Source of the DNA: Geosiphon pyriformis uo1
Taxonomy: Eukaryota > Fungi > Glomeromycota
DNA length: 64,000 bases
Direction of reading: 5' to 3'
Assembly: GCA_016748015.1 (NCBI GenBank)
Contig: JAAOMT010000011.1
Location: forward strand, 1-64,000
In this document: positions 30,644 through 57,736 of the stretch, piece after piece
Layout: the number at the start of each line of letters is the position of its first letter
Position numbering within the stretch: the first letter of the stretch is position 1
Notes under the pieces: model-generated
The model's database searches: none
Seen by the model: only the letters and a program-made list of their open reading frames with translations
What the model was told of the DNA's origin: nothing
Position numbers and translations under genes: made by a program

Positions 30644-30937
30644 TATTGTTTGGTTATTGTGTTGGTAGATTGGTAAATTGTGGTGGGTTTTGTTGTTGAT
30701 GTTAATCTTGTTTCATTCTTGAAAGGCTATCAACATTGGTGTGTAGTTTTCCTGGTTTATGGTGTACAATATATTTGTAGTCTGCTAAAAAATCATTCCA
30801 TCAAAACTGTTTGGCACTTTGTTCAGTTTTCTTTTTGTTGAGCCATTTGAGGCCAATATTGTCAGTTATGATGTTAAATTCTTTTCTATTCTTTAGGTAT
30901 TGTTGAAAGTGTTTGAGAGCCCAAATGACTACAGCAG

Positions 30938-31333: not shown

Positions 31334-31367
<34 letters not shown>

Positions 31368-31957
31368 AAAGATAAATTAGTAATGTCAATTGCCATAATC
31401 AAGAGTGATTAGACCAAATTGTTAATCATTTGAGGTGGTTATGCTAAGAGCATCTGTCCTAAAACAAAGGTATGAAATAAGAGTTAATTCATGTAAATTC
31501 TACAAAGTTTGAGAACATGAATTCATGATTCTGATTTCTTTAATAATTGGTTTATTTCAAAAGATGAAATAGAGAAGATAATAAATGATAAAAGAGTATA
31601 AATATTTGATTCTTGTTTAGAGGTTCATATCTTATCTGTCTCTTTTTTTAACTTCTATTCCTACTTGCTTTTATACATTCTTTTGGTTTTACAGGATTGC
31701 TTTCAATTGTCTTGCTATCACTAGCTATTGCTTTGTTATTTCTGTTATTGCTTCGTTTTTCTACATTATCACTAGTTATTTTATATTATAATATGTTATC
31801 TGATGTTATTACATGTTATTCTGTATTATTCTGCGTTATAACATGTTATCCTACATTATAATGCATTATCCAACATTATTGTGTGCTATTCTGTGTTATG
31901 TCACATTTTGGTCACATTTTTTTATAACTTTGAATCGGTTTTTCTACTTGAGTAACA
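30938..31957 (-). repeat. Family B 3' LTR (1020 bp; A32 tract at 31334-31365; short TGTTA/TTC repeats about 31720-31900)
   Basis: TGTTAC...GTAACA; PPT AAGAGAGGGATAA adjacent. Confidence 0.92.
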
Positions 31958-31972
31958 TTATCCCTCTCTTTT

Positions 31973-32707
31973 TTAGAATTGAGCTTCTGCGAAATTGTAT
32001 ATATCTATTCCTATGTCTTTATTTGTGTAATGTTCAATGATTGCATTGAGTATTGTTTTTTGTAGGTTTTCGAACTGTTGATTGGTAATTCATTCTATGT
32101 TGTTAACTGTTATTGTCTTTATCAATCCATACAACAGTATATTTGGACAATGTTGGAAAGCGACGTATAGTTGGTATGCTGTTTTGTAATATAGAGTCAG
32201 ATTGTTTTTCCCTATGAACTTTTCTACTTGTTGTATTGCTTTTTTATTGAACGTTTTCTGGCTGAAGTCTTCATATGGTGTTTTCAAGTCAAGTTGTTCT
32301 CCAATTTTGTAGAACCAATATGCTGGAAAAAGTTTTTCTTTCCATTCCTGGGCATTGTCAGGTGTCCACTCCTTTGTTTCAGGGAGTTCAGTTTCATGAG
32401 CTAAAGCTTCTTTTATTTCTTTGAGCTCAGGGACCAAGTATCTTCTTTTGTAACCTTTTTTTTGTTCTTTGCCTCTTTCTTCTCTACCTTCTGCCCGAAG
32501 GCAATTTTTTCTCCAACATTGTCTTTCGGGTGGTGGGTAGAAGAGGGAACGTTTAGTTTTAATTGAACTCTCATCCTCCCTTCTTCTGCTCTTATCTTTG
32601 TACCATATTTCTTTTTTATCAATTGTTATTTCTATCTGAGCAGGAGATTTTTGAATTGTTTCAAATAATTGTTTAGATAATTTTAAAATTTGATCTGAAA
32701 AGTCCAT
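31973..32707 (-). pseudogene. Family B ORF3 (unknown protein), frameshifted near the C-terminus
   Basis: MDFSDQILKLSKQLFETIQ..IEITIDKKEIWY..FYKIGEQL..AYQLYVAF; lies between integrase and PPT. Confidence 0.82.
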
Positions 32708-32787
32708 GTTGAAATTTCTATCATTTATTGCTGCTTTTTGGATGCTATATATATTTGAATTCCCCAATTTAATTTGCTGCCCATTGT

Positions 32788-34155
32788 CTATATTTCAATG
32801 ATGATGATTGGTTCCAAATTTCATGGTATATCTTCTGGTCTGATTAATGAAATTTGTGTTCCTAGTTGAAGTACTAATGACAATGATCTCTGTTTTGCAT
32901 GATAAATTTTTAACCGATTTCCATGTGCTACTTTTATTAAAATCCTGTCTTTCAATTATAGTTTGTAAGCTCCATTTCCTAAAGCTTTGTGTATATGGAA
33001 TGGACTGTCCTACTTTGGATCAAACTTTCCACTCCACTGTTTCTTAGCTTTTGTATGATATAACAGTACCTGGTTTCCAATCTTGAATTCCATTGGTTGT
33101 TCAGACAGGCAATCATCATGTCTTTCCTTTTGCTATTTTTGAACATTACTAATATTATCAGCTGCTGTTCTTTGGTTGTTTTCTAATGTCTCCATTAGCT
33201 GGTACATTCTTTGGTATAAAGTAGCTTCAAAATTCTCTTTTGTGATTGTTTCTGTTGGGTAAAACAATATTTTTTGTTCGATAGATAACATCACTTTTCT
33301 TTTATAGACTAGTTCAAATGGTGTGAATTGTGTTGTATTTTGTTTTAGTGTTCAGTATACAAAGAGTACTGAAGATATGAATAAGTCTCATTCTTGTTTG
33401 TTCTCTTGACTTATTTTTGCTAGTGCTTCACAAAGTGTTCGGTTAAACTATTCTACCAGTCCATTTGTTTGTAAGTAGTATGGTGATGATAGAGGATGTT
33501 TTATACCAAACCATTGACTTAATTTTATTAGCGTATTATTGACAAAATGTGTTCCTTGGTCAGATAGCAATTCTTTTGGGCATCCATGTCTGCAAATTAG
33601 ATCTTGGTGTATGAATTTGGCTACTGTTTTGGTGTCAGCTACTTGGATTGCTCTAGCTTCTGGCCATTTTGTAAGATAGTCTACAGCTACAATGATGTAC
33701 TGATTTTCTTTGGATGTAATTGAAAAAGAACCAACCAAATCAATCCTAATTCTATCAAATGAATTTCCAACTGGAATGGGTCAAAGTGGTTCTGTTGATC
33801 TTGCTCCTCCTCTTCGCTAGCATGTGTCATAATTAAGCACGTATTCAAAAATTTCTTTGTATATTGTTGGCCAATAGTATAAATTTAGTGTTCTTTTAAG
33901 GGTAGCATCTTTGTTAAAGTGTCCTGATATCAGATCTGAGTGCATGCTATATAGTATAGTTTTTTTTTCACTGTCCTTGATTAGTTGTTGTGGGGTGGAA
34001 TGGTTTTAGCATTTTCATCAATATAGTTGGTTGTCTTAAATAAAATAATTTTGGGCTTGTTTTCATATGATACTTTGTTTCTGTTGAGATAATATCTCCT
34101 TGAAACGTAGTGTCGATAGGTACTGATGTAGTCATTGATAAGTAAGTGTGTTCAT
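32788..34155 (-). pseudogene. Family B integrase (separate ORF), disrupted
   Basis: ATG at 34155; VDYLTKWPEA, LSDQGTHF, QTNGLVE; NLEPIIIIEI end. Confidence 0.88.
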
Positions 34156-34165
34156 GAGTCTGGGA

Positions 34166-36868
34166 TTAGGTTTGTGACATTCTTGACAAACTGTCGGCAT
34201 TGGTGTTCTTGGATTCTTCCTTGTAATAGATTTTGAATGAGAATTGTTGCAAATAAGTACTCCATCTTGCATATTTTTTTTCTAGTTGTGAATTGTTGAA
34301 TAACCAAATAAGTCCTTTGTGATTAGTATATAGGTCAAATAGTTGACTGAGGTAATGTTTCCAAGTCTGTACAGCCCAATAAATGGCAAAACATTCCAGA
34401 TCTGTTGTGCTGTAATTCTTTTCTGCTGGGCTCATGCTGCGACTGGCATAGACAACTGAATGTTCTCTATTGTCTAGTCTTATCTGTGATAAGACTGCTT
34501 CTAGAGCATTTTTTAAGGCGTTTATAGTGACAATGAACTATTTAGTGAAATCTGGATAAATCAGGATTGGGGATGTAATCAATTGCTGCTTGAGATAATC
34601 AAATGCCTTCTGTTGATCTTTTTTTCACAAGTATGGTACATATTTGGACAACAAATAATGAAGTGGTTTTGTGATGTTTGAGAAACCTTTGACAAATTGA
34701 TGATAATATCCTGCCAATCCTAAAAATCCTCATAATTCTCTAAGGTTGATTAGAGCTGGAAAATCCTTGACTTTTTAGACCTTATCTAGATTGGGTTTGA
34801 CTCTGTCTTTGCCAATTACATGTCCTAGAAATTTTAACTTGGTTTTTTCAAAGAAGCATTTATCAGGGTTGAGTTTCAATCTGGTATTATAAAAGCATTC
34901 AAAGATTTGTTATAGATAGAACAAATGATCATCAAACATTTCAGAGAAGACATTGGTGTTATCTAGATATACTACAACTGATTTCCACAGGATTCTTTTG
35001 TATATGATATCCATGAGGTGCTAGAACGTGGCAGGAGCATTACAGAGTCCAAAAGGCATTATGTTAAACTCGAAGTTTCTGTTTTGAGTGGTAAATGCTG
35101 TTTTTTCTTTGTCTTTGGGGTTCATTTCAACTTGCCAATAACCACTTGCTAGATTTAATGATGAGAACCATTTTTTTTTTCCTAGATTGTCCAGAATTTT
35201 CTGGATGAGGAGAGTGGAATAACTATCTCCTTGTGTAACACTATTTAGTTTTCGGTAATCTATGCAGAATCGTACTTTTCCATTTTTCTTTGTAACTAAT
35301 ACCACTGGAGAGAATTAAGGGCTTAATAATTTTTTAATCAGTCTGTTGTCAAGCATTCATTGTACTTCCTGTTTAATCAGATTATTACCAGATAGGAGTA
35401 CATAGTAAGCTTGTTGCTTAATCAGTTAAGCATTTTCTGTATCAATCTGATGCTTCACAATGTTGGTGCGTCCGAACTTATTTTTGCTGGCAAAAACATT
35501 GGCATACTAATTCAGAAGGACTTTGAGTTGCATTTGTTGCAGGGTATTTAAGTTTTCTAAATTCAATTTATTGATCTCTTCTAATATAAACAAATAACTT
35601 TCTTTTGGCAAATTCCATACTTGTGAGGTAATGTCACAAAATAAGAATAATTGTGTGAAATCTGAAATGGACTGTGGTTTGTCAGGATTCTGAATATCTG
35701 CAGATATGGAACTGATGAGGATTCCTTTGGGGATTTCAATGACATCTTCTGTTAGGTTGTAGATGGGGATTTTGAAGTGTTTATGGGCTTTGGCCGGTAG
35801 GTATAGATTAGCAACATCAGTTAGAGAACAGATTTCAGGACTGGCTTCGAATAACAGGGCTTGATCTTGGATCTTTTAATTCACCTTGAAGATGTATTGT
35901 CAGTATGGAGGAATGAAGATGATAATATCAATGTAGATAAATTCTACCTGGTCACTGTCTTCTTCCATGAAATTAACTGGTATGTTTCCTCTTCCACTTG
36001 ATCCAAATCTGTTGATTCCTTAAGCAGTGAGACCTAATTCTTCTCAGGTTGTTACTGGTGTCAATTAGGGTATTTTGACTAGAGGTAGGAAGATAGCTTG
36101 AGCAATTTTTTCTTGTGATTCTATTTTGTAAGGTCTGTCTGAATTGTTCTGTAGCATCACAATAATGTTCTCCATATAACCGGCATTGATGATTCTTCTT
36201 TTTACGTTGATTTTTTTCTTGGCTAGACTAAATCGAGAGGCAACTTGTATCATTGTACTAACAGGAATTTCTAATGCTATCTTAAGATCTATTTTTACAA
36301 AGGAATATGGGGCTATAATGATGGATGATTGTCCAGGGTATTATAGATCAAAACCAGCATTGGTGTTATGTGCTCTTTTGAAACAGATTCCTTTTTCATT
36401 GTCACTGTACTATTTTAATTTTAATTCTTTGGATAGGTTGGAATATGCGAGGTACTGCTCTGTTTCAGTAGCTTCATTAGACTCTTGAAACAACATGTCC
36501 TTAACTATTAACTTGGCTTCTTCTTCAGGTTTTGGTAGCTTGTCAATAGAGTGTAATATTTTTGGTAGTGGATTGAACATAAGATCACATTTATTACAAT
36601 ACTGGAAATGGCAAGGGATTAGGCAATGATCACATAATTTCATGTTTAGGTCAGCTAGTTTTTGTTCTTGTTCTTCTCAGGTCAGAGCCAATTCTTGGTA
36701 ATAATCTTGAAATGCATCCGGGTCATCAGTGAAAAAATTTTTGGTAATGTAATCGGGTCCTTTATATTCAAATACAAATGGGTTTTCTTTGATTTCTCAT
36801 ATTTTGCTGAGTGTAGTACCTTCAGATTTGGCACTTGCCATCCCCCATATTTCATGTTTGTCATACGG
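34166..36868 (-). pseudogene. Family B pol: end of Cys-rich domain, dUTPase, RT, RNase H
   Basis: LCDHCLIPCHFQYCNKC; IINAGY..KIAQAI; FCIDYRKLN..MPFGLCNAPATF; NADSLSR. Confidence 0.9.
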
Positions 36869-37880
36869 TGTTACCAGTAGAATTTTAGCTATTAATTAGC
36901 ATGAAATTACCCTTATAATTCCTATAATTCATTAGTATATTAATATCATTTCAAATTATCATTTATTATTTAATCAATTATCACATATCATGATTCAATT
37001 AAAATAATCTAATTAGTATAACAGAAAGTAAGATGATCAAATTACACAATACCCTGAACTTTGTAACATTCAAAAATTTGCCAAAATTTACAGAAATTTG
37101 CCGAAATTTATAAAAAATTTGCCAAAATTTACAGAAATTCGCTGAAATTATGAATAGTTCACCCAAATTAATCAATAGTTCAGCAAAATAACTTGTAGTT
37201 CATCAAAATGTATCTTTAGTTTGCTGGAATTTGGGCAAAGAGAAAAAGTGCAAGTTCATAAACTAGTACTACAACAAGTTGTATAAAAGAAGAGCTTTTC
37301 TCTTCTGGAAAATGTATCTTACTTTAGATTTATCTCTTAAAACTGTTCCTATACACACAAAAAAAAATAAATATCAAATAATTCAAAAAAACAAATTTTT
37401 TAATTATTGTACTTGGAAAATCCCCAAAACCCAACTAACATTTCGAAATTGATTAGCTACTAATTTCAGTAAACTGTTAGTGACTCCAGGTCTGGATAGA
37501 AAACGTTTCTCTTAACAAAATTTTATTTCTTTTATATTTCTTTTATTTTCTTTTATTTTTCTTATTACAATCATTAAAGTAGCCTACAGACAAGATTCCT
37601 GTAGAAGAGTTGACTTTCACAGCAAAGTAACTACACATTTTTAGTGAGCTTCCAGACAAACAATTCCTGGGAAAAAGTTGACGTTTACTACAACATAACT
37701 ACATAAAGTAACTGGCAAGGAATTGGCCATTCCACTTATAAGCCCAGCAGTTCAAATTATAGAAGATAATTTGAAGATAAATTTAGTTATTGGAGGTTCA
37801 GCTACTTCCTGAAAACGTGAATTCACAGTAGATCAACATTACCAACATTTAAGAAAAGAGACCAAAAACCTCTGGTAATA
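36869..37880 (+). repeat. A4 5' LTR (1012 bp)
   Basis: Direct repeat of 45774-46785; terminal CA mutated to TA. Confidence 0.95.
37074..37150 (+). repeat. Tandem 21-bp repeat AAATTYGCCGAAATTTACAGA (about 4 copies) in the LTR
   Basis: Directly visible; also at about 45979-46055. Confidence 0.85.
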
Positions 37881-37882
37881 TT

Positions 37883-37892
37883 TGGTGCTCTC
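37883..37892 (+). promoter_or_regulatory. Primer binding site TGGTGCTCTC
   Basis: 2 nt after the LTR; complementary to a tRNA 3' end ..GAGAGCACCA; shared with families B and C. Confidence 0.85.
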
Positions 37893-37925
37893 CCACAGAA
37901 ATAACACAGCAACAACAAATTCAAA

Positions 37926-40900
37926 GTGGCAATCACACCAGACACAGCAACTCTAGAATATTACCAGTCAATTTACACCCACTACAAGCAAAGATTCAAC
38001 ATTCCAGACGGAATTGAAATTGTAAAGAAATCAGTATACCAATATATTGAAAACCACATCAACAATTATCTTTTTGGAAACTACAACATTTCAGAAGTTA
38101 GAAGCAACCTCTACAATAATTTAGTGCATTATTCACATTTGGGAACAGAAGACCTGAACAGTGAAACACTTGCTACCTACTTTCAAGAACTTAATTTTAA
38201 TATTATTAAGTATTGTGAAGAAAAATACCCAGTACAGTCTAAATACTCTTTTGACTTTGAATCAGAGACAGAAACAAGCAATAAAGGCAAACAAAGATTG
38301 AAGCAATACTCAAGAACCACTCCAAACACTCCAACACTACAAAAGACAACTGCCAAACACTTGCAAACATCTGAACAAGGAACCAGTGTCAAATTACCAC
38401 TTTCTATTATACCATTTCCAATTTCACTTGTTCAACCACAAACACCAAGTTCACCACTTAGCCGTTTCTCCAGACCAGAAGATTTTCAGTCACCTAGAAA
38501 TCCTACTCAACAGCAGGAACCAATATCAACAAGTGCCAATATCATTGATTACTTACAGAAAAACGAAAGTAATCACTCAGAAAGCTTGGAAAGTAAAGAA
38601 ACTGAATCAAAACCAGAAGAAATTCCAGAAAATGAAGAAGAAATGGCAACTGCTTACATTGCAAAAATCCCAGAATTCACTGGTGAAGACAATGATACCA
38701 GTCCCCAAGAATGGCTTGACAAAGTTCAAAAAGCAGGAGATGCAAATGGTTGGATTGCAGCAAGAATGCTCAAAGCAATTCCCTACTTTCTCCAAGAAAC
38801 AGCAGGAGAATAGTTTGAAAATTTAGAAGAACCATTTGAAAACTGGCAAGCATTCAAAGATGTTTTTCTACAACAATTCACTAACAACAATACCTCTATC
38901 CCTCTCAGAAACCGCTTTCACAATATCAAACAAGAAACATCTGAATCTGTTATGACCTATCTTGGAAGATTTAACAAACTTCTCAGATGAATCCGACAAT
39001 TGGAAACCAATGACTACTATTCTGATGCTCAAATTCTGGATCAGTTTATAGCAGGGTTAAAAGACAAACTGATTAAGAAAGTCCGTCCACATGCTCCAGC
39101 AGACTTAGCAACTCCTATTAAACATGCAAAGAGCTATGAAATGGCAATAGAAAAAGCAAACCACACCAAACTTGTCAACCTAGCTATTGAAAAAACCAGC
39201 TCAGCAGCTGAAAAAAAAATAGACCAACTTACAAAGAAAGTTGAAAACTACTTTACAAACCAACAACAACAGCAACAATCACAAAGATATCAACCACTAC
39301 AATGATGTAACCAAAACAATTTTGGTTACCCATCTAACAACCAACTTCAAAATTGTCATTATTGTGGAATTTCAGGACACTGAAAACAAGATTGCAGAAA
39401 ATTGCAAAGAGACCAACAAAACAGGAGTAATCAATGTTATTCTTTATCACAACCATCTTATTACCAACCTCCACCACCAATTTATTATTTATCAAGACCA
39501 CAAAATTAAAACAATTATTATCTACCAGCTCCACAACCAATACAGCAACAATATTAGCAACTTTTACCAATTCAGCAATATCAAACACCATCTATTCAAC
39601 AATATCAAATACCAGCCAGAAGATTGGTTCAACATAACCAATTCACATCCCAAAATCAATTTCAGAATAATAACAACAGAATTAATCCAAATAACCAGTT
39701 GGTTTCCCAAAATTTGGGCCAGCAAAGACCCAATCACTATCACACTCAACCCAGTTATCTTACAATACCAGAGGAATCGGATTTTCAACAAACTGCACTT
39801 TCTAAAGGTAAAATTGCAGCACCAAGATCAAACTCTTCTAACCACACTATTCCCTCAGCTCAAATTGCCCAAAATGCTAATCTGTCAGATATATTTCCAT
39901 TTGAATTTGAGGCAAATGAATCACCATTTCTGCTTAGTAATGCAGCAGTCAATGAACAGAAAGCAATTACTGCCATGTACACAGAAACTACAGTGGAAGG
40001 AAAACCCATTCGCTTAATCTTAGATAGTGGATCAGCTGGAAGTATTATCACTTACCAGCTGATGCAACAACTTAAACGAAATGTAGACAGACCAGCTCAA
40101 ACAGTTATTGTTACAGCTGATAGTATGAAGAAGACTCCAGTAGGAGAAATTTATGATTTCCCTTTTTCAATTGATGGAATCACCATTCCAGTTAAAGTTC
40201 TTGTTATGGATGCACCCCAATACCAAGCTCTAGTCGGAAATGATTGGCTTCACAAGACCAATGCAAACCTGAACTGGGAAACTCAAGAACTTAAAATTTC
40301 ATACCAAGGACAATATACCATAGTATTTGCAACCTGTGGTATCTTTAACAAATGATCAGAAAAAGCTCCAGTATTTGAATTTGAAGAGGAGAAAGAAATG
40401 CCACTTACTGAAACCTACATGGCTCTTGGATCAACATCCAATTGGGCTGAAGAAACCAAACAAGAGATTTTCGAAGAATCAAGGGGATGGAAGAAAGTTA
40501 GATATTCTACACCAGAACCACAGAAACAACCACTCTATATTCCACTCAAATGCAAAGATTGCAACAAAAAACTTTCATCAATGGTGCCATGTATTTCTCC
40601 AGAAGAGGAATATAAAACTTGTACCTGTTACTTTTGCAAAGCATGCCATAGAAAACAATTTGGATCTCCAAAAAGAAGTAGAAAATGGGACAACACACCT
40701 TGCCTTACATGTGGAGAAATACTACCAGAAGAATGCAATTGGATTGATGTAGCAATGAGAGGAGGAGTATGTGATCAAACCTGTCAATATGCTCTATCAA
40801 TTTCGGAAAAAGTCAGAAGAGGAACACCATTTGATGCAGCATACAACAGTGCTCTCAATAAACTTTACCACTACCCTCATGATGCTGAAATGATTTTTGA

Positions 40901-43533
40901 CCTAGCAATGGCATTAATCAATGGAGCCACTCAAGAAGATGTCCACCAAATGAAAGAAGCTGAATATATTGAGTACATCATGGAATTAGCTGGATTTGAT
41001 TATGAAGATGAAGTAGAAACCTACCACCAAATTGCAAGCCACACATATCCGACCAAAGAAGCTCAAATTCAACAATTAGAGCAAATGAACATTCAATTGT
41101 GTAAAGAATGTGTTATGCCTTGTGATGACCAATGGTGTTTAGAATGTTATGCTCTTAGCATTTCTCAGCCAGATGAAAATGATGAAAATGAAATCGAATT
41201 TGGAGTATTTGAACAAGTAGAAGAACTACCAACCACTTCCATCTATCTTCTTGAAAAGCAACCACCTCTACAACTTAAATATTTTGACAACCATGGCCAA
41301 GGAATCAGACCAGAAAAAGCACACGAAATTGATGCTAGATATGACTTGAGATATCCAGGAAAAGATACTTTGATTCTCCAACCAAAGTCTTTGACAAAAA
41401 TCAATCTAAAAATTGCTCTTGAAATTCCACCAGGAGCAATGGTTCAAATTGCCTCCAGATTATCATTGGCAAGCAAAGGAATCAATATTAGAGGAGGAGT
41501 TATAGATGCAGGATACATTGGAGACATTACTATTATGTTACAAAATGAGACAGACAAACCATTCAAAATTGAACATGCTGAAAAAATTGCTCAAGCAATT
41601 TACTTACCCTTAATCAACATTTCGGGTTTACAATCAGTAAACAACAGAGAACAATTGGGAAAAAGTGAAAGAGAAACTCAAGGTTTTGGTTCAACTGGAC
41701 GATTTACAGTTCCAGTAAACATAGTTCTTAATACACAAAATGAATCTCACCAGATTCTTCAACTTCCTCAGCCAATTACCATTTCATTTTTTGGAGAACA
41801 TCACGAAATTTACACTTGCTCAAAACCCAAATCTTTGAATCCAATGAACAAATCTGTTTGAAGCATGAAATATCAGTTCCAAACATTTATATTCCCAAAG
41901 GAATGAAAAAATTTTGAGTTACATTTTACAACCCCAATAATTACCCTATTGTTTTATTAAACAAATTAAAAATTAGAATCATACACAGCAATATCTTTCA
42001 AGATGAAAACTCTCAAATTGTCTCTAATTTTATCGAAATTATAAAGCACACTCTACTCCCAAATCCAAATATCATTCCCACTACTGAAAACTACCACTTG
42101 TTGGAAGAAAAACTCTCTTGAATCAATATAGGTCCCTTAGAACCTCAACAACAAAGACAATTGAAACAATTGATAGCTGAATTTGCAGACATATTTGCAA
42201 AAGACAACAATGACTTGGGAAAAACAGACATTGTTCAACATCAGATCCATACAGGAGATGCTCTACCAAAACGTCAACAAGCTTATTAAGTGCCACCTGC
42301 CAGCCACCAATTTATTAGAGAAGAGGTCCAAAGAATGCTCAATAACGGATTGATTCAACCATCAAGAAGTCCTTGGGCCTCACCAGTAGTTTTGGTTAAA
42401 AAGAAAAACAGAAAAATTAGATTCTGTGTTGATTATAGACAACTGAATAGTGTTACAATTGGAGATGCCTACCCTCTTTCAAAAATTGATAACATGCTAG
42501 ATGCTCTGGGAAAAGCCAAGTTTTTTTCAACTTTAGACCTGGAAAGTGAATACTGGCAAGTCGAAATGGACCCAAAAGATAGACCCAAAACAGCATTTAC
42601 CACTCAAGGAAGAAATTATGAGTTTAATGTTATGCCTTTTGGACTCTGCAATGCACCAGCAACATTTCAGCGATTTATGGATGTTGTCTATGAAGGGTTT
42701 TTGTGGCAATCAGTAGTTGTTTATCTTGATGATACTAATGTATACTCACCAAGCTTTGAAGTCTATCTCATTCACCTGCGAGAAGTTTTTCAATGATTAC
42801 AGAAAGCAGAATTAAAGTTAAATATTGAGAAATGTCACTTTGGAAAAACAAGTTTGATCTTTCTTGGACACATAGTTAATAAAGATGGAATCAAACCAAA
42901 TTCAAGAACAATCAATACTGTCAAAAACTTTCAAACTCCAGAAATACTACAGAACTAAGAAGATTTGTGGGATTAGCCTCTTACTATCGAAAATTCATAA
43001 AAGGATTCTCAGAAATTGCCAAACCACTCAATTATCTTACCAACAAAAACGTATCCTACAAATAGACTGAAGAACAACAAAAAGCTTTTGAAATTCTCAA
43101 AACAAAATTGACAACAGCCCCAATTCTTGCTTACCCAGACTTCAACAAACAATTCCAATTAGCTACTGATGCCTCACACATAGCATTTGGTGCTATCTTA
43201 TCACAATTGGATAAAAATGGCCAAGAACAAGTTATTGCCTATGCCAGCAGAACATTTAAGCCAACAGAACTCAAATATGGCTCAACTGAATTAGAAGCTG
43301 CTGCAGTTATTTGGGCTCTTAAACATTTTCAACAATATCTGAAAAATGAAAAAGAATTTGACATAATAACGGACAACATTGGCCTCAAATGGCTCAATAA
43401 AAAGAAAACTGAACAAAGTGCCAAACAATCTCAATGGAATGACTTCCTAGCAGACTACAGATATATTGTACACCACAAACCAGAAAAACTACATACCAAT
43501 GTTGATAGCCTTTCAAGAATGAGACAAGATTAG
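37926..43533 (+). pseudogene. A4 gag (N-domain, capsid, CCHC knuckle)-protease-Cys-rich domain-dUTPase-RT-RNase H polyprotein, with stops and frameshifts
   Basis: ORFs 37926, 39000, 39624 and 40398 share one frame; ILDSGSAGS; dUTPase motifs YDL, GVIDAGY.G, KIAQAI, GFGSTG; RT YLDD; RH ATDAS..ELEAAAV..NVDSLSR. Confidence 0.93.
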
Positions 43534-43590
43534 TACCAACAACAATTCCACCACAACTTACTAACTTACCAACAAAATAACCAAACAAGA

Positions 43591-44942
43591 ATGGATTCCA
43601 GAAACTACAGCAATCTTAAAATTATTTGGAGACCCTTACCATGCCAGAAAACTGGTCTCCAAGTGAAAAATACCGCTTACAACACTAATCAAAACAATAT
43701 TTCATACACCAGAACAAAATTTATTATAAAAATCACAGAAAACCAAACCAGCCATTCAGATTAGTACAAGAGAATGAAAAAGAAACAATTTTATACAACA
43801 TGCACACAGATCCGTTTTCAGCACACTTGGGAAAAGAGAGAACAATTCAAAGAACCTTTGAACATTATTTTTGGCCTCACATGCAAAAAGACATTTGACA
43901 ATATGTAAAATTTTGTGATAACTGCCAAAGAAGAGGAGGAACTCGCCCCACAGAACTTTTAAATCCAATCAAAGTTGGACAACCTTTTGACAGAGTTGGA
44001 ATTGATTTAGTCAGACCATTACTTATCACAACCCAAGGAAATCGTTATATTGTAGTTGCAGTGGATTATCTTACCAAATGGCCTGAAGCTAGAGCCATCC
44101 AAAAAGCAGATGCAAAATCAGTAGCAAAATTCATCTATGAAGACATTATCTGTAGACATGAATGCCCAATTGAACTCTTATTTAATCAAGGAACACATTT
44201 TGTGAACAACTTGATACAAGAAATTTGTAAACGGTTCAATGTCAAAAGATTTCTATCATCACCTTATCACCCTCAAACAAATAGACTTGTAGAACGTTTC
44301 AACAGAACATTGTGTGAATCTTTAGCCAAAGTCTCAACAGACTTTGAACAAGAATAGGATATCTTTATTCCATCAGTGTTACTAGCATACAGAACACTAA
44401 AACAAGATACTATGAAACACACACCATTTGATCTTACTTATGGAAAGACAGCAACATTACCAATTAATTTCACAGTGGAAACATACCCAGTGCAACCAAT
44501 CAATAAAGAAAACTTTCAAGAGACACTTCAAAGAAGAGCCTACACTCTTCTTAGTACACTGGAAGAAAAAAGAAGAATAGCAACAGCTCATATTGAACAT
44601 TCCCAAGCTCAACAAAAAGAAAGACATGACAACAAATTATCATCTATTACCAACGAATTTAAAGTTGAAAATAAAGTTCTCTTACACAGAACAAAGGCTG
44701 AAAAACAATGGAGTGGGAAATTTGAAAAGNNNNNNNNNNNNNNNNNNNNNNNNNNNNNNNNNNNNNNNNNNNNNNNNNNNNNNNNNNNNNNNNNNNNNNN
44801 NNNNNNNNNNNNNNNNNNNNNNNNNNNNNNNNNNNNNATTCCACAAATTGGTACACATTCCCCTTTAATTAATCCTGAAGATATTCCCCGAAATTTAGAA
44901 CCAATAATTATAATAGAACAACAACCAAACTTGAACACTTAA
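43591..44942 (+). pseudogene. A4 integrase (separate ORF after the RNase H stop), disrupted; no chromodomain
   Basis: ATG at 43591; H..H..CDNC, IDLV, QGTHF, VERFNRTL, TPFDLTYG. Confidence 0.9.
44730..44837. other. Assembly gap (108 N)
   Basis: Run of n. Confidence 1.
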
Positions 44943-45085
44943 ATTTTACAATAATTCTCTACTAAAAACACAAAGACAAAAATAGTAAATAATTACAAAA
45001 CACCCAAACCCAAAAACAAATAAAAACCCCATATCCAAAAAATAATTTTCTTTATTCTCTCTTTTCATAATTAGTCAATTTTATC

Positions 45086-45793
45086 ATAATTATTCCTCGA
45101 AATATTCAACAAATATTCCAAAAATTAATGTTAGCCTTGAAAACACTTCCTGACTTATCTATAACGATTGATGGAAGTCAAATTAAATACATTCAGAAAA
45201 AAACCACAGCCCCAGTAGCAAATCATTTACAGAACTATCACCTCTATAAAAGAGAAACAAAAAGTCACTCTGAGAATAGATTACCAAAACTTTTGAAGCA
45301 GGCACTAGAAGAAAATCTGCTAATTGCCTCTATTAACATTCCACCAAATGCTACAATGCAACAAAAACTATTACTACTTCTTAATGAACAGAACAATGAA
45401 CACACCCTTATCTATAGATACTTTCAAATTGGAAAAACACTTTATAAACGAAAACTGGAACTTGAAGCAACAAATCTCACTCCTGAAGTTATACAAAAAC
45501 AAATCTACAATAAATTCAAAACAGCAGCTGGACCAACAAACACTTGCTACAAACTTAGAGCAGCTTTTAGACTTTATGATTTGTTTAATACTTGTGAAAA
45601 TGTTCTACAAAATCCAATACTGCAATCAATGAAAGTCCAATACATTGGCAAACTCACAGAACTGAAATTTCAACAATTTTCAGACCAGATTACTTCAATC
45701 ATTTTAGATCACTATCTCAATATTACAGATAGTGTTTGGACTTTGACGGAGCTCAGTCTTGAGGAGGAGATTATGTTACCAATAGAATTTTAG
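45086..45793 (+). CDS. A4 ORF3, unknown protein of about 235 aa in the env position; frame open, start ATA here (ATG in A2/A3)
   Basis: Stop-free 221 aa from 45128 plus 14 upstream codons; runs through the PPT into the LTR; homologs in A2, A3, B and C. Confidence 0.75.
   Translation: MIIPRNIQQIFQKLMLALKTLPDLSITIDGSQIKYIQKKTTAPVANHLQNYHLYKRETKSHSENRLPKLLKQALEENLLIASINIPPNATMQQKLLLLLNEQNNEHTLIYRYFQIGKTLYKRKLELEATNLTPEVIQKQIYNKFKTAAGPTNTCYKLRAAFRLYDLFNTCENVLQNPILQSMKVQYIGKLTELKFQQFSDQITSIILDHYLNITDSVWTLTELSLEEEIMLPIEF
45761..45770 (+). other. Polypurine tract GAGGAGGAGA
   Basis: 3 nt before the 3'LTR. Confidence 0.85.
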
Positions 45794-46785
45794 CTATTAA
45801 TTAGCATGAAATTACCCTTATAATTCCTATAATTCATTAGTATATTAATATTATTTCAAATTATCATTTATTATTTAATTAATTATCACATATCACGATT
45901 CAATTAAAATAATCTAATTAGTATAACAGAAAGTAAGATAATCAAATTACACAATACCCTGAACTTTGTAACATTCAAAAATTTGCCGAAATTTACAGAA
46001 ATTTGCCGAAATTTATAAGAAATTCGCCGAAATTTACAGAAATTTGCCGAAATTATGAATAGTTTACCCAAATTAATCAATAGTTCAGCAAAATAACTTG
46101 AAGTTCATCAAAATGTATCTTTAGTTTGCTGGAATTTGGGCAAAGAGAAAAAGGGCAAGTTCATAAACTAGTACTACAACAAGTTGTATAAAAGAAGAGT
46201 TTTTCTCTTCTGAAAAATGTATCTTACTTTAGATTTATCTCTTAAAACCGTTCCTATACACACAAAAAGAAATAAATATCAAATAATTCAAAAAACCAAA
46301 TTCTTTAATTATTGTACTTGGAAAATCCCCAAAACCCAACTAACATTTCGAAATTGATTAGCTACCAATTTCAGTAAACTGTTAGTGACTCCAGGCCTGG
46401 ATAGAAAACGTTTCTCTTGACAAAATTCTATTTCTTTTACATTTCTTTTATTTTCTTTTATTTTTCTTATTACAATCATTAGGGTAGCCTACAGACGAGA
46501 TTCCTGTAGAAGAGTTGACTTTCACAGCAAAGTAACTACACATTTTTAGTGAGCTTTCAGATGAGCAATTCCTGAGAAAGAGTTGACGTTTACTACAATG
46601 TAACTACATAAAGTAACTAGCAAGGAATTGGCCATTCTACTTATAAGCCCAGCAGTTCAAATTATAGGAGATAATTTGAAGATAAATTCAGTTATTGGAG
46701 GTTCAGCTACTTCCTGAAAACGTGAATTCACAGTAGATCAACATTACCAACATTTAAGAAAAGAGACCAAAAACCTCCAGTAACA
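45774..46785 (+). repeat. A4 3' LTR
   Basis: TGTTAC...GTAACA; direct repeat of 36869-37880. Confidence 0.95.
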
Positions 46786-48635
46786 ACAGATAACCATCCA
46801 ATCTACTGAGAGCTTGTCTCCAAGCAGCTTTGATCGGAGTTTCTTTTTGTATCCAATTATTAATCAAGATGGTATATTGACACATTTTGTCACATGTCTC
46901 TTCTTTGCCAGATACATCATTCCAGAATCCTTTATCTAGCAGGATCTCACCACAGACAAGACATGGTGTACTGTTCCATTTGCCTTGTCGTTTCGGTTTT
47001 CCGAATTTTTCTATTATATATGGTCTGCAATAGTATTTTATGGTAGTTGGCTATTTTTTGTTGTCTCTAATATATGCGCCCATAGTAAATAACTTCTTTC
47101 CACAATCGACACATATTAGTCTTGGAGGTTGGTAAAATAGATTTCTTTGGTCCAAAGTTACATATCCTATTGATGATAATTGGGGCTCTTCTTCAGCTCT
47201 GCCTTTTCTTTTTTCTTCCCAGGTTGGTGGTGGGGGTAGTTCAGTTTGATAGTCATCCATTCATGAAATCTGATAGGTCTTGATGGTTGGTGGCAGTAGT
47301 GTGTCTTCGAATTCAATAAGGGGTTCCTTGGTACATTGGATTTTAAAGTGTCTGCACATAGCTGAGACTTAGGCATGCTGTCTGTTGAATGTGAGTTGAA
47401 GTTCTTGGGTGTTCCAGTCGAGAGTAGTGTTGACTTTTGACAACCAATTGTTTTCTACTAGAGCTTAATATTAAGTAGCTTCTATGACAAATACTTTGGT
47501 AGGAATCTGAATTCCATTAATTTTGAAGAGGAAGTTGTTAATTTTTCTTATTGGGGTTTTTGTGTTTCCATCTGCCATAATAATCCAGGTGGTAGCAGCA
47601 TGGTCTACTCAGTGACCTAGTTGGTCTATGAGCTGCTTTGTAATTATGCTACCGGCTGATCTACTATTCAGAATTAACTTAATGTTTATTCTTCCAACTC
47701 TGGCATCAGTATATAGGTCTGTTATTGGTTTATCTTGATTGATGGCTGCTCCACTAAAAAGACTATGGGTGTTCAAATTATCAATGTCAAAAAGAAATAT
47801 GGCAGTTAGAGTGGTGTCCTCAGTAATAGTGGCTGGTGGGATGTTGCTTTTTGTTTGCTTGAAAGGTTGGAAGATTTGTTCTACATCTTTTTCTTCCATA
47901 GGTGTAGATTTATCAAAACCCTGGTCTTCTGTGAGACTAAAATAAGAAGCTTGATTCGAGTATTCAGTTGGTGTTGGTTGAGATTGGGCAGGACCATAAA
48001 GAATTGGTTGAGACAGTTCACTGCTGGTTTGTGCCTAATTGTTGTTGAGATTCCTCCATCCCTGATTATAGTCTATAGCTCGAGGTCTGGGCTGACTATA
48101 AGGAGAAGTTTGATAGTGGGGGATTGCTTGTGTTATTGATGATGGTTAATAATAATTCTGGGGTGGTGGTTGAATATACGGGACTTGTTGTGCATATTGA
48201 GATGGTTGATTTTAAGGTATGGGATATTGGGATATCATGCTTTGCTAATATTTTGGTTGCTGATATTGGTTTCCTTGATTTTGGTCCATGATCTTTTTTC
48301 TGCAGTTCCACACAATGTGTCCAGATTTCTGGCAGTAGTAACAGTTGTAGAGATCAGTTCTCCAAAGTTGTTGCTGTTGTTGACAGTTCTGTTGCTGCAA
48401 GTATCTGTTGTTGTTATTTTCTCTCTGTTGTGGTGGTTGATAGGTTCCTGTAGTTCTGGCTAAGAATCCCTTAATTTTCTGAGTTAGTTTTTCACTCAAT
48501 TGGGTTATTTTTGCATCAATGTCCGAGGTTCTATTAATGGCTAAATTAATGGCTTGAGTATGATTTGCTTCTTGTTCTGCAGACTCAAAATTATAAGTGA
48601 GAGCAATAGTGTCTTGTAAATTGGTCGGATGGTGG
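46786..48635 (-). pseudogene. Family B gag C-half, zinc knuckle, protease and first part of the Cys-rich domain
   Basis: CYYCQKSGHIVWNC; LILNSRSAGS; LICVDCGKKL. Confidence 0.88.
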
Positions 48636-49296
48636 TGTTACAGGTGACAAGTTCTGGTGTTGAATTAAATAACAACCCATAACTTGGTGCTCAAAAAGCT
48701 ATTTTCGTTGATGATGTTCTGAAAGTGTTGTATTTGAAAGTTTTGATGGAGTCTTTTGTATAATAGACAGAGATTCAATAGTTGTTTTATTCAAGCTTCC
48801 CAGACTCGCAAGTCTGTTAATTTTTTTCTTGGCTTGGTGGCCAGCAATCCTCTGATAAGTAATCCGTATCTTCTGTACATGTTCTATCTACTCACAAGAG
48901 TCTTTTACCAGACAATTCTTGACGTCAGTAATCAGCACTTTTAATTAATGGGTTAGTGCACAATAACAAAATCACAGAAAATAAAGAAAATAAAGAAATC
49001 TAAAGAAATAAGCCAAGGTGATTTGTAGATTAGTATCCCGTCAATAGCTGTGATCAAGAGTTATTGTTCTAGTGTAGTTAAGTATCAATTACTATCAACA
49101 TGAAGTGTTGATAGTGGAGAGTGGATTGAGATATGAAATAATTATTTATTTGATGATTGTGTTTCTAGACTAAAAATTCTGTGGTATTAATTTCTCTGAG
49201 AGGAATCCTGGAATTCCACATTTACTATATCTACCTCTGATTGGCTAATATCTACTGACTAATAATACTATATTTTCTTATATTCTATGAGTAACA
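48636..49296 (-). repeat. Family C 3' LTR (661 bp)
   Basis: TGTTAC...GTAACA; repeat of 57737-58321. Confidence 0.93.
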
Positions 49297-49310
49297 TTAT
49301 TCCCTTCTTT

Positions 49311-49940
49311 TTAATATTAAGCTCCATCAAAATCTAATTCTTTTAATTCTCCCTCTTGAATTATTTCTTGAACTTTTTTTTCGAGTATTACTTATGTTAT
49401 TTGACTTTGTAATTCTTCAAATTGGACATTGGTCATTTTTCCTAATTGATTACTCGTAACTGTATCCATTGCTGTGTTGAGTAAGATTTCTGGTCAGTCT
49501 TGAAATCCTATATATAGCTGGTAAATGGCTCGAGCTTGTGTGGTTAGATTGTTTTTTCTCACAAATTGTTCTAGTTGTCTCAGTATTGTTGTGTCAAATA
49601 ACCATTTTGTTTTGTCAGTGTATAAATTCTGGATATTTATGTGTTGTCCCAAGTAGAAATAACAATAGTTTTTCAGAAATTTTTGCATCCACCAAGTCCA
49701 AGTTTCTCTGATAAGATCTTAGTGTAATCTGACTATTTGTTGTTTGTTTATGGCCAATTTTATTTTGGTCATGATCTTGTTAACAACATTTTCAAGTCTT
49801 TTCTGTGCTTTGTGTTGTGGTATCTTTGCCATATTTTTGTAACAAATGGTTTGTTAATTGATTGTAATTTCTATTTCTTGGTGTTGGATCAATTGAAAGA
49901 GTTGTTGTGCTAGTGAGTGGATGTTGTTGGTTATTTCCAT
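49311..49940 (-). pseudogene. Family C ORF3, disrupted
   Basis: MEITNNIHSLAQQLFQLIQHQEIEITIN..YFYLGQHI..AIYQLYIGF..LGKMTNVQF. Confidence 0.8.
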
Positions 49941-49975
49941 TTTTCTGGTATCTTTTGTCATATCAACTATGTCTT

Positions 49976-51376
49976 TATATACTCTTTTGTTGTTTAATTT
50001 TACGTGTTTGGTCTAATAATTATAATTGGTTCCCAGTCTTGTGGAATCTTATTTGGTTGGACTAGTATTCTTTGTACTCCCAGTTGTGGAATGTTATTGG
50101 TAAATGCTGATGCTATTTGGTGATATGGTTTTAATTGATCACCATGTGCTGCTTTGTCTAAAATTCTGTTGTCCAGTCTTAATTTGTAAGCTCCATTTCC
50201 TAGAATTTTTTCTATGTGAAATAGTTCATTCTATTTGGGGTCAAATTTTCCACTCTATTGTTTTTCTGCTTTAGTATAATGTAAAAGTACTTTGTCTTCA
50301 ATCTTGAATTCAACTGGTTTGTCTGGTAGTTGGTTATCATGCCTCTCTTTTTGTTTCTCTTGTGCCTTTTTAATGTTATCAGCTGCTTTTCATCACTTGT
50401 TTTCTAGAGTTTCCATTAAATTATATGTTCTTCTTAGTAACATTTCCTAAGAATTGTCTACAGTTATTGGTTCTGTTGGATAAGTGTTGACTTCTATCTC
50501 AACTGGTAGTGTTGCTGTTCTACTGTATACTAATTCAAATGGTGTTGCTTGTATAGTGTCTTGTTTCATTGTCTGATATGCCAATAATATGGATTGTATA
50601 AACAAATCCCATTTATCTTGGTTTTTTTGGCTGAGTTTTGCTATTGCTTCACATAATGTTCTATTAAATCTTTCAACTAATCCATTGGTTTGTGAATGGT
50701 ATGGTGATGATAGTGGTCTCTTAATTCCGAATCTTTGGCTTAGTTCTGCTAATATTCTATTCACAAAATGAGTTCCTTGGTTTGATAATAGTTCTTTTGG
50801 ACTTCCATGTCGACAAATCAAATCTTGATGGACGAATTCGGCAACAGATTCTGCATCTGCTCTTTGAATTGCTTTTACCTCTGGCCATTTAGTAAGATAG
50901 TCCATAGCTACTGCTATGTATCTGTTTTCTCTGCTGGTGATTATTAATGGTCCAACTAAATCAATTCCAATATAGTCGAATGATTGTCCCACTTTGATTG
51001 GTCTTAATGGTTCACTGAGTCTTGTTTTTTTTTTTCACTGACAAGCATCACAATTTTGTACATATTGTATGATGTCTGGATACATTGATGGCCAATAGTA
51101 TCTCTTTCTGGTTCTTTCTATAGTTGCTTCTTTATGAAAATGTCCTGCAGTTGGATCTGAGTGCATGTTGAACAGTATTGTTTCTTTCTCTGGTTCTGTA
51201 ATTACTCTGGTTAGCTGATCTGAATCTTTTCTATTTTTCCGATAAAGTATATTTTGGTGGGTAATAAAATATTTGGATTGTTGTTTGATCCTCTTTTGTT
51301 CTGGTTGAGATAATTTCTCCTTGAACTGTTAAGTATCTATATAATGTTGAAGTTGTTGATATTTTTGTGTGTTCAT
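49976..51376 (-). pseudogene. Family C integrase (separate ORF), disrupted
   Basis: ATG at 51376; GIDLVGP, NQGTHF, GLVERFNRTL (50447-50992). Confidence 0.88.
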
Positions 51377-51437
51377 CTTTTGTTATATTTTTGTGAGTAT
51401 TGTTTTGGTTTTGTTATATTTTTGGGTTGAAATATCC

Positions 51438-54400
51438 TTAGATTTGTCTCATTTGTAATAAACCATCAGTATTTCCATTGTCTTTTTCCTTTTTATAATG
51501 TATAGTATAATTATATGATGCAAGTACCATTTTTCATCTTGACTGTTTTTCATCTCCAAATTCTTGTTTTTGGAGTGATGTTAATCCTTTGTGATCTGTG
51601 TATACTTCAAACTTCTGGCTTAAGTATTTTTTCCATTTTATGACTGCCCAATATATTGCTAAGTGTTCTTGTTCCGGTGTTCCATAGTTCTTTTTGGCTG
51701 GTGTTAGACCTTGGCTGGCATATGCTACTGGATGTTCTCTGCTGTCTGGTTCTCTCTGAGATAGTACTGCCCCCAATGCTTGGCCAGATGCATCGGTGGT
51801 GATGATAAATGGTTTGCTGTGATCTGAATAGATCAGTACTGGAGCTTAGATGAGCTTTCTTTTCAGAATATCAAAAGCTTCTTGTTGACTTTCTGTCCAT
51901 TTATATTTTGTATTTTTGTTTTGCAGCTGGTTGAGTGGCTGTGCTATCTTGGAGAAGTTCTGAATAAAACATCGATAGTAGTTGGCAAATCCCAAGAATG
52001 ATTTCAGTTCTGTTATATTGGTCAGCACTGGAAAGTTCTTTACTATTTCTATTTTCTCTGGATCCATTTTGATGCCATCTTTGCTGACTATATGTCCCAA
52101 GAATTTTAGTTCTGTCTTGCTGAAGAAGCACTTTGTTGCATTTAACTTTAATCCTGCTCTTTTTAGTCTTTCAAACACTTGTTGAAGATGATAAAAATAA
52201 TCATCAAACATTTTTAAGAATACATTGGTGTCATCCAAGTATACAACTACTGATTTCCATAATAAACCAGTATAAATAATTTCCATTAACCATTGGAAAG
52301 TGGCTGGAGCATTGGTTAAGCCAAATGGCATTACTTCAAATTCGAAATTTCCTTCTCTAGTAGTGAATGCCATCTTTTCTTTGTCGGCTGGATTCATGGC
52401 TACTTGTCAGTAACCACTATCTAAGTCTAATGTTGAGAACCATTTGTTCCTGCCGAAAGCGTCGAATAATTCCTGTATTCATGGAGTTGGATAACTGTCT
52501 CCATGAGTTACATTATTGAGTTTCCTGTAGTCCACACAAAATCGGATTTTTCCATTCTTTTTATAGACCAGTACTACTGGTGACAACTATGAGCTCATTA
52601 ATGGTTGAATTAGCCTATTGTCAAGCATTCAGTTTATCTCTTGACAAATGATCTCATGGCTGGCTAGTGGTACTCTGTATGCTCGCTGTTTGATTGGCAT
52701 TGCATTTCTAGTCTTGATTTAATGTTGGATGATGTCAGTTCTGCCAAATTTGTTTTTGCTGGCAAAGATGTCATTGAAATTGTTGAGTAACATCCTGAGC
52801 TGTATACGTTGTAGTGAGTTTAGATTTCCTATGTTCATTTGTTCCAATTGTTCTGGTTGGAGCAAATAATATTTGTCTTGTCCATAGATTGTTTGTGATG
52901 TGATGTTGACATATTCACAAAGTTGTAGAAAGTCTGGAATGGGGTTTGGTGATTGGTTTTCTATTTCTGTGGTTAAATATCCGATGGTGGTTCCTTCTGG
53001 TATGTTGATAACATTGCCAGTGTTGTTGTAGATGGGAATTTTTATGTGGTTATAGCTTTTGGCTGATATGTGGAGATTGATCAGTCCAATCTCTCCTGAT
53101 TTACAAAGATTTGCTTCAGCTTCAAAAATCTGTTCTTGCTCCTTTTTTTTTCTTTCTATTGCTAGCATATACTGGCTATATGATGGAATAGAAATAGCTT
53201 GACTGGTTGAGATAATTTCTCCTTGGCCAACAATTTCTTCCTCCACCATATTAACTAGTATATCTATTCTACTCATTGATTCAAATTCCTGTATCTCTCT
53301 TGCTGTTATCGCTAATTCTTCCCTGTTTCCCACTGACACTAATTAAGCTATTTTAACCAGAGATAGGAATATTGCCTGTGTTATCTTTTTGTTTGGCTCT
53401 ATTATATAGGCTTTTTCTGAGTCGTTTTGTAGCATAGCAATGATATTTCCTACATATTCTGTGTCAATTATTCCTCCTCTGATGTTTATCTCTCTTTTTA
53501 CTAAACTACTCCTAGATGCTAATTAAACCATTGTTGTTGCTGAAATTTCCAGTGCTATTTTCAAATCAATGCAGGTGTGCAAATATGATTCCAATTTGAT
53601 GGCATCTTTTCCTGGATATCTCAGATCAAATCTGGCATCAGTATCATGCACATGTTCTGGCATAATACCTTCATTATTATTGCTAAACCATTTCAGTTTT
53701 TGTTCCTTGGTGAGGTCAAGAAGTGCAATATATTGTTCATAATTTGAGTCGGAATTTGAATCTGAGTTGATATTATTGTCATTGTCATTGCCATTTTGAA
53801 TGAAGCTGGAACCATTATTCTCGTCGTCATTGTTGTTGAAGTTTGAATCAGAATTGAACGATGATTCCAACTCCGATGTGCAGCTGCTGATTGGTTCTTT
53901 CTTTTCGGGGATCATGTAGATCATGCATGGTGGTGGATTGTAAATGAGGTCACAATCATCACAATATTCAAAGTCACTGAAAATTAAACAATGGCAACAC
54001 AGTCTTGTATTCAACTGTGCTAGCCATTGTTCTTGCTTCTCTCTAGTGAGTGCTAAGTTTTGGTAGTGTTCATAGAACTCTTCTGGTTCTAGGGAATTTA
54101 TGACTGGCTCTGTGTCCCAGTCAAGCTTGATGGGTTCTGGTGGGTTGTTCTTGATCTCTCTGATCTCTTCGGGTGTTACTCTTTCTATTTTGGTGATTGC
54201 CATTCTCCAAATTTTGTCATCGTCATGTGGACAACTGTCCAGTCACTGCATGGCTCTTTTTCAAACTGTTTCTATTGGGGTTCCTTTTTTTACCCAGTCG
54301 TTTATTAGAATTGTGTATTGACATGACACGTCACATGTTCCTCTATGTCTTGGAATGTTATTCCATATCTCTTTATCTAGCAAGATCTCCTCACAAACAA

Positions 54401-57734: not shown

Positions 57735-57736
57735 AA

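Follow-up and report, generated by a model that had tools for sequence, protein, structure and literature searches.

The window analysed here is a stretch of 64,000 nucleotides from the Glomeromycota fungus Geosiphon pyriformis uo1 (contig JAAOMT010000011.1, positions 1 to 64,000, assembly GCA_016748015.1). It is a nested pile of long terminal repeat (LTR) elements decayed by C>T changes (CpG observed/expected 0.25), and it holds three families of Ty3/Gypsy elements, A, B and C, in which the integrase is encoded by a separate open reading frame (ORF) behind a stop codon. A and C were each inserted within B, and B was inserted within A3, another copy of family A; the window also contains a second family-A copy, A2, and a diverged A subfamily, A'. 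Family A is represented by a complete element at 36869-46785 on the forward strand, with LTRs of about 1012 bp, a target site duplication (TSD), a primer-binding site (PBS) and a polypurine tract (PPT). Its features, with reverse transcriptase abbreviated as RT, are as follows:

36869..37880, +: 5' LTR, TGTTAC...GTAATA, with TATA and AATAAA within
37883..37898, +: PBS, beginning TGGTGCTCTC; first 10 nt identical in B and C
37938..38252, +: N-terminal Gag domain (Gag-N), homologous in A, B and C; no Pfam match
38631..39197, +: capsid (Retrotrans_gag, Ty3_capsid; Pfam)
39354..39395, +: CCHC zinc knuckle (from sequence)
39954..40295, +: aspartic protease, DSG (Pfam)
40533..41177, +: Cys-rich domain (from sequence comparison)
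41310..41699, +: dUTPase (Pfam E 5.6e-19)
41700..42120, +: unassigned domain of ~140 aa linking dUTPase to RT; the frame is broken here in this copy
42395..43530, +: RT and RNase H (Pfam); frame break in this copy near 42935
43531..43533, +: conserved ORF1 stop, TAG here, TAA in about 99% of depth
43591..44942, +: ORF2, integrase as a separate gene starting at an ATG of its own; HHCC, DDE core, GPF/SH3-like C-terminus
45086..45793, +: ORF3, protein predicted to be helical and of no known family, passing through the PPT into the LTR; start ATA here
45761..45770, +: PPT
45774..46785, +: 3' LTR

The layout shared by families A, B and C

By Pfam, A and C have capsid, protease, dUTPase, RT, RNase H and integrase, in this order; in family B Pfam gives dUTPase, RT, RNase H and integrase, and capsid and protease were assigned from the translations, where CCHC knuckles are seen in all three families. 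Gag through RNase H is a single frame of 2053 codons in family C, and a 108-N gap at 44730-44837 lies inside the integrase C-terminus of A. The initial annotation had proposed one layout for the three families (Gag-N, capsid, knuckle, protease, Cys-rich domain, dUTPase, RT-RNase H, stop, integrase ORF, third ORF, PPT), and it is confirmed by Pfam, translations and homology. The Cys-rich domain, then sized at about 250-300 aa, is real but smaller, its conserved part measuring about 205-215 aa within a longer protease-dUTPase interval. The LTR bodies are indeed dissimilar, as had been noted, the common stretches being limited to low-complexity patches of 35-93 nt; the LTR ends, TGTTAC...GTAACA, and the start of the PBS, TGGTGCTCTC, are shared.

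The elements carry the hallmarks of Ty3/Gypsy: LTRs with TG...CA ends, TSD, PBS and PPT, an RVT_1-type RT, the order protease-RT-RNase H-integrase (PR-RT-RH-IN), and an integrase with HHCC, DDE core and GPY/F (GPF is read in A2; the N gap hides the site in A). They depart from the canonical organisation of Gag plus a single Pol in that the integrase lies outside the Pol polyprotein. No Chromo domain was matched on the A, B or C integrase, whose tail after the SH3-like part is short.

Gag-N is homologous across the three families (0/1000 shuffles per pair), and so is the Cys-rich domain (E 2e-36 for A vs C, 6e-24 for A vs B), which has no Pfam or Atlas match and likely binds zinc. The ratio of nonsynonymous to synonymous substitution (dN/dS) between A and A' is 0.11 for Gag-N, 0.13 for the Cys-rich domain, 0.17 for dUTPase, 0.12 for capsid and 0.09 for protease; a simulation of neutral decay with the same transition bias gives about 0.5, with a lower 2.5% bound of 0.23-0.33. 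Gag-N, the Cys-rich domain and dUTPase are thus shown to be under purifying selection. In retroviruses dUTPase limits uracil in cDNA, and by analogy the enzyme here likely keeps uracil in the element's cDNA low.

The stop, the separate integrase and their relatives

RNase H ends in S-R/Q/K-M, and the ORF1 stop lies three codons past this end in 5/5 window copies that contain it; the stop is TAG in A and TAA in A2, A3, B and C. A DNA sequencing run with family A (718 contigs), possibly the window's own source, lists a single change of at least 3% at the stop, G>A, which gives TAA in 94,314 of 94,985 depth, and no change of at least 3% at the integrase ATG. The stop is ancestral and not decay, because the family-A copies in this run read TAA.

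Relatives were sought with an integrase profile in soil metagenomes, and the best 80 of 142 confirmed loci are considered here. All 30 loci with RNase H upstream stop before the integrase, in relative frames 0, +1 and +2 in 8, 9 and 13 cases; these loci were chosen by integrase patterns, several are near-identical, and they do not represent 30 independent events. The same reading correctly called the fused control L001 as fused. That contig, from a viral collection, encodes Gag-Pol as a conventional fusion, with an Env-like region following in frame at the C-terminus (L001:951-8111). The spacer between RNase H and integrase ranges from -145 to +371 nt in the relatives, L033 with its premature stops excluded, and is mostly 60-140 nt; in A, B and C it is 10-61 nt and AUG-poor, with the 10-nt gap in B. 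Relative to ORF1, the integrase is in frame +1 in A2, A3, B and C and in frame 0 in A. The integrase start has A at -3 in 56/60 cases vs 123/394 internal ATGs, and G at +4 in 51/60 vs 139/394. The same stop in all three relative frames, together with this strong start context, excludes a shared frameshift or readthrough. TACTAAC, a branch-like word before the A integrase ATG, was discarded as a candidate signal, being absent from A2, A3, B and C.

Intact relatives also read from Gag to RNase H in one frame (L018, 1612 aa; L042, 1849 aa). Many have a Cys/His extension of 190-400 residues after RNase H that is unlike the Cys-rich domain of the window; in the subclade with the RNA motif described below it forms a Cys/His-rich end with no Pfam match (L018:4345-5163, L042:4601-5821, L068:5669-6505). 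The Cys-rich domain and dUTPase have no match in any of the 80 metagenome loci, of which 7 show capsid to RNase H unbroken and several more cover protease to RT. The accessory modules of the initial annotation therefore fall into two groups: the split integrase and ORF3 are lineage-wide, and the Cys-rich domain and dUTPase were added locally. One split-integrase relative encodes a NUDIX domain upstream of protease (L065:74-2968, Pfam E 7.5e-9), a second nucleotide-pool enzyme in the lineage beside dUTPase.

A quick RT-RNase H tree of 53 rows, including 28 hand-picked from 120 long proteins and made without bootstrap or named reference clades, joins A, A2, B and C in one clade (SH-aLRT 99). The three divergent families do share their layout, as had been claimed, but not independently: since they form one clade, theirs is one inherited design and one piece of evidence rather than three. 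The clade sits within a 28-row group (SH-aLRT 94) that includes all split loci and gene models of Rhizophagus clarus and Cetraspora. Two genuinely fused proteins, P0315 and P0318, are sisters to this group (95), and a fused long-branch protein, P0316, is nested in it (96). Judged from these sequences, the integrase split likely arose once in or near the clade, and re-fusion is possible. The metagenome loci and the tree support the idea of a distinct lineage equipped with accessory modules, and this lineage reaches far beyond this genome.

Five Rhizophagus clarus and Cetraspora models that contain RNase H and are annotated as fused (P0311, P0314, P0322, P0337, P0312) are likely the result of annotation bridging the stop, because in all five the C-terminal motif of RNase H and the beginning of the integrase are missing, as predicted introns over the stop would give. 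Among the other protein matches, P0254, in the cluster of the L006 integrase, has one member that bears the label of an archaeal metagenome-assembled genome; the contig is probably eukaryotic and mis-binned. Some of the long integrase matches are fern polyproteins that have an additional RNase H domain.

The third ORF, the RNA motif and the expression of the integrase

ORF3 is homologous across A, B and C (E 2e-24, 1e-7 and 8e-8). Its start codon, decayed to ATA in A, is ATG in A2 and A3. The A protein matches 201 protein clusters, and the 120 listed are all Geosiphon pyriformis hypothetical proteins, the best at 91%. ORF3 proteins are 140-270 aa long and predicted to be almost all helical. 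They have no transmembrane segment in A, B or C (maximum 19-residue hydropathy 1.10, 1.05 and 0.43), no Pfam family and no PDB sequence match. A closterovirus coat protein look-alike (Atlas score 0.92, 150 shared features, recognition below threshold) was dropped when the folds gave no support.

Among the relatives a short ORF3 family of ~140 aa is found in 28 of the 37 loci with at least 500 nt beyond the integrase, 5 of the 28 being outside the training alignment; L030 has the long form, and long ORF3s with the same PPT-derived tail also occur in metagenome records (P0160, P0166). The short-ORF3 profile ranks eight long ORF3s, A and B included, above all 200 shuffles; P0160, P0152 and the family C ORF3 score among the shuffles. 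Alignment of long vs short ORF3 by hhalign gives a probability of 64% and E 7e-5. The AlphaFold models (predicted local distance difference test, pLDDT, 75 for the long form and 95 for the short) show the core helices in the same order; in comparisons with solved and viral proteins neither has a Foldseek match at E<=0.001, the best Z being 4.5 for both. On these profiles and models the two forms are taken as remote homologs. In six pairs of intact relatives the dN/dS of ORF3 is 0.09-0.28; a seventh pair is saturated.

A TATA box lies 43-91 nt upstream of ORF3 in 16 of 26 relatives (2.5 expected; 0/300) and 41-46 nt upstream in C and B. It stays with ORF3 in L033 and L055, where ORF3 is more than 1 kb from the integrase, and 8 of 14 such boxes checked are in non-coding DNA. 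Upstream of the integrase there is little excess of TATA (8/53; mean 3.6; 9/300). One subgroup has a fourth small ORF of 117-122 aa between integrase and ORF3 (L003:1671-2024, L005:2855-3208, L077:1018-1386); that of L005 has no Pfam match.

Of the 60 loci in which an integrase start and sufficient upstream DNA are present, 38 have, directly before the integrase ATG, a motif of ~40 nt (for example L013:4464-4500 and L026:295-331), and 2 more match it weakly. It has the form GGUGAAAG-C-NNAA-G, followed by a stem with a CA-NNG-UG-A loop and a closing GCC. In 35 aligned copies 96.5% of cells are paired and 10/14 pairs show two-sided changes (0/500 shuffles), against 26-46% paired in slid controls; the structure was derived from the same sequences on which it was evaluated, and the shuffles ignore kinship. 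The motif ends 0-15 nt upstream of the next ATG in 38 of 39 cases, and 3 nt upstream in 20. An Rfam scan of 8 motif-bearing loci at E<=5 gave no match on the motif, the exact degenerate pattern does not occur in viral and prokaryote collections, and by eye the motif does not fit the hammerhead, iron-responsive element or tRNA box consensus. It is absent from A, B, C and the window, where the best score (E 0.17) is not upstream of any integrase and the leaders before the A, B and C integrase are plain and A/C-rich. In L077:3112-3149 it lies ~240 nt past the PBS, and the ATG that follows it at the contig end is possibly the gag start. The covarying motif before the integrase and the TATA box before ORF3 are new here.

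On balance, the junction sequences lead us to favour translation of the integrase by reinitiation after the ORF1 stop. The LTR transcript would then give Gag-Pol lacking integrase in one frame, and protease would cleave this product; part of the terminating ribosomes would remain on the RNA, scan the AUG-poor spacer and start the integrase at its strong-context AUG. The amount of integrase would be set apart from that of RT, and the enzyme would enter the particle by binding rather than within Pol, so that the two are likely controlled separately; in the subclade that has it, the motif would tune the integrase start. ORF3 is likely made from its own transcript under the internal TATA promoter, a short message that would share the 3' LTR poly(A) site, and its product would act as a non-structural helper. 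Tight stop/start overlaps within 11 nt (ATGA, TAATG or ATGnnTAA) are found in 6 of 30 junctions, and overlaps of these types are termination-reinitiation patterns in caliciviruses and fungal victoriviruses (PMC3542737). The longer spacers are free of ATG in 17 of 22 cases, vs 7.3 expected (0/500 shuffles).

Several observations weigh against this reading. The usual spacer length of 60-140 nt, the 371-nt spacer of L012 with 7 ATGs and the 145-nt overlap of L065 fit simple reinitiation poorly; UGGGA, motif 1 of the termination upstream ribosome-binding site (TURBS), precedes the stop in just 3 of 30 relatives and is not found there in A or B; and ATG-poor spacers with a strong start context suit a subgenomic mRNA equally well. 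Where the motif lies 3 nt from the AUG (20/39) it would need melting. As to ORF3, its dN/dS in the window is borderline (0.27, A vs A3) or 1.56 (A vs A2, over 75 codons), its long and short forms are linked remotely, A lacks the TATA box, and 6 of the 14 boxes checked are inside integrase codons, in loci that are related and partly near-identical. Three genuinely fused RT-integrase relatives (P0315, P0318, P0316) stand beside or within the clade.

The same three genes could be expressed in another way, with the integrase made independently of ORF1 translation, either from its own message (by internal start, splicing or nuclease trimming) or by motif-driven internal entry. This is a possibility that we take seriously while doubting it. 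The spacers of motif-bearing elements are 62-115 nt, with one of 371 nt, the motif is fixed in position to the AUG (0-15 nt in 38/39) and not to the stop, L077 has it after the PBS with no upstream ORF seen, and the strong context of the integrase ATG fits as well. Set against these are the lack of a clear TATA excess before the integrase (8/53), of a splice acceptor conserved by eye in 57 upstream regions and of the motif itself in A, B and C, as well as the tight overlaps in 6/30 junctions. Reinitiation and the motif or subgenomic modes may coexist in different subclades. It is improbable that RNase H and integrase are joined by a programmed frameshift, by readthrough or by splicing, with an ordinary Pol as the working protein. 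In favour of this, A2, A3, B and C have the integrase in frame +1, and five models are annotated as fused. Against it, A is in frame 0, the relatives show all three frames and spacers of -145 to +371 nt (without L033), an extra 190-400 residues follow RNase H in many of them, the integrase has a conserved Met with its own start context, and none of the five fused models keeps the C-terminal motif of RNase H or the beginning of the integrase. We give almost no credence to mutational decay of dead copies as the source of the stop and the extra ORFs. The copies are rich in C>T-derived stops (26 X in the 2054-codon frame of family C, terminal stop included), and 39 of the 42 differences between the A LTRs (95.8% identity) are transitions; yet the stop is in the same position in three families and is TAA family-wide, intact relatives have the same layout, ORF3 matches 201 protein clusters, and there is purifying selection.

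Neighbouring elements, affinities and meaning

The remaining elements of the window, all on the reverse strand, are:

48636..58321, -: family C element; LTRs 58321-57737 and 49296-48636; TSD CCAC
Within C, -: ORF1 stop 51440-51438; integrase ATG 51376; ORF3 from about 49940, TATA 41 nt upstream
30938..59876, -: family B element, interrupted by C and A; 5' LTR remnant 59876-59627, most of this LTR being lost; 3' LTR 31957-30938
Within B, -: stop 34168-34166; integrase ATG 34155; ORF3 32707-31972, TATA 46 nt upstream
5241..13720, -: A2, another copy of family A (89%) that lacks its 3' end
62..5235, -: A', subfamily of A that has diverged (77%) and extends past the window edge
27432..30937 (3' part) and 59877-64000 (5' part), -: A3, with B between both parts
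17292..18281, -: solo LTR, A group; TSD ACAT

The TSD is 4 bp in 3/3 complete insertions (ACGG/ACAG in A), and all 10 flanks of 7 insertions (e.g., 36865-36868, 46786-46789, 48632-48635) are, by plain count, centred on CG, CA or TG with variable outer bases. Positions 13721-17290, 18282-19960 and 26336-27420 on the forward strand hold decayed element(s) of non-LTR type, broken up by the solo LTR and A3, with endonuclease-, RT- and RNase H-like stretches in translation only. The segment 20000-26300 is unrepeated and very AT-rich at its ends; its minus strand has broken Ser-rich frames near 23000-24900, and it may be a host gene with introns.

In LTR retroelements integrase normally comes as a part of Pol, an arrangement that fixes its ratio to RT and ensures its packaging; retroviral integrase, too, belongs to Pol. 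A, B and C are like Ty3/Gypsy (Metaviridae, e.g., yeast Ty3) in their LTRs, PBS, PPT, capsid, CCHC knuckle and PR-RT-RH-IN order, and unlike it in having an integrase gene behind a stop, a third ORF before the PPT and the extra Gag-N and Cys-rich domains. The third ORF has the position of env in errantiviruses and retroviruses, between integrase and 3' LTR; at 140-270 aa, with a helical prediction and no transmembrane segment, it is not Env. The suggestion of the initial annotation that the elements are closer to a complex retrovirus consequently holds for gene count alone, as ORF3 is not Env and the integrase is outside Pol. In gene expression the nearer analogy would be a polycistronic pararetrovirus. 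Caulimoviruses similarly have consecutive ORFs on one reverse-transcribed RNA, the last with its own promoter, and their trans-activator (TAV), made from 19S RNA, drives reinitiation; no sequence or fold link of the lineage to TAV was found. The stop-restart of victoriviruses, with AUGA/UAAUG overlaps, is a further likeness (PMC3542737). The lineage differs from both virus groups in having LTRs and an integrase.

Published elements allow other comparisons. Gag and Pol also share one frame in DGLT-A, the single-ORF element of Dictyostelium (PMC5911963). Some fungal Gypsy elements, namely PosPlaTy3-5 (Postia), Tmt1 (Tuber) and Phanerochaete elements, are known to have, like A, B and C, a dUTPase between protease and RT (PMC2864245, PMC6431247); by description, those surveyed are set apart as chromodomain types, whereas A, B and C have no chromodomain, and the portions available mention neither a split integrase nor a Cys-rich domain. 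Bao et al. 2010 (PMC2836005) described YPYY integrases, Gypsy-1-I_RO (Rhizopus), DGLT-A, Athila/Tat-related groups and Ginger1 transposases, with 4-bp CCGG/ACGG targets. A, B and C may resemble the YPYY group and Ginger1 in an N-terminal segment before the zinc finger that looks YPYY-like by eye, and they have GPY/F and TGTTA ends; the 4-bp TSD, the ACGG of A being a Ginger1-type site, would be a further likeness to Ginger1, from which they differ in having LTRs and RT where Ginger1 has terminal inverted repeats and no RT.

A more speculative and unlikely proposal, built on these analogies, is that the elements form an undescribed, Glomeromycota-centred polycistronic clade with a pararetrovirus-like programme. 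ORF3, with a new helical fold and an internal promoter, would be a TAV-like trans-activator licensing integrase translation, in one subclade via the ~40-nt RNA element; integration would be separately switched; and the YPYY-type integrase with CpG-centred 4-bp targets would offer a living model for the Gypsy-to-Ginger1 step.

We found no published description of this split-integrase lineage, and the G. pyriformis genome paper, paper supplements, Repbase, GyDB and REXdb may hold one; in the portions available, PMC3248453 and PMC5911963 describe no split integrase. A survey of mycorrhizal transposons reported an LTR burst in G. pyriformis amounting to 41.2% of the genome, the word 'integrase' being absent from its main text as available (PMC11952901). 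That burst is now given an anatomy. The results suggest that transposon pieces account for thousands of annotated 'hypothetical proteins' in G. pyriformis and for fused RT-integrase gene models in other mycorrhizal fungi. The intact relatives provide direct test material: a covarying RNA motif of 40 nt, a third gene that is under strong selection and has a putative TATA promoter, and a high-confidence model of ORF3 without structural match. A lineage that makes free integrase must solve the translation and packaging of this enzyme in another way.

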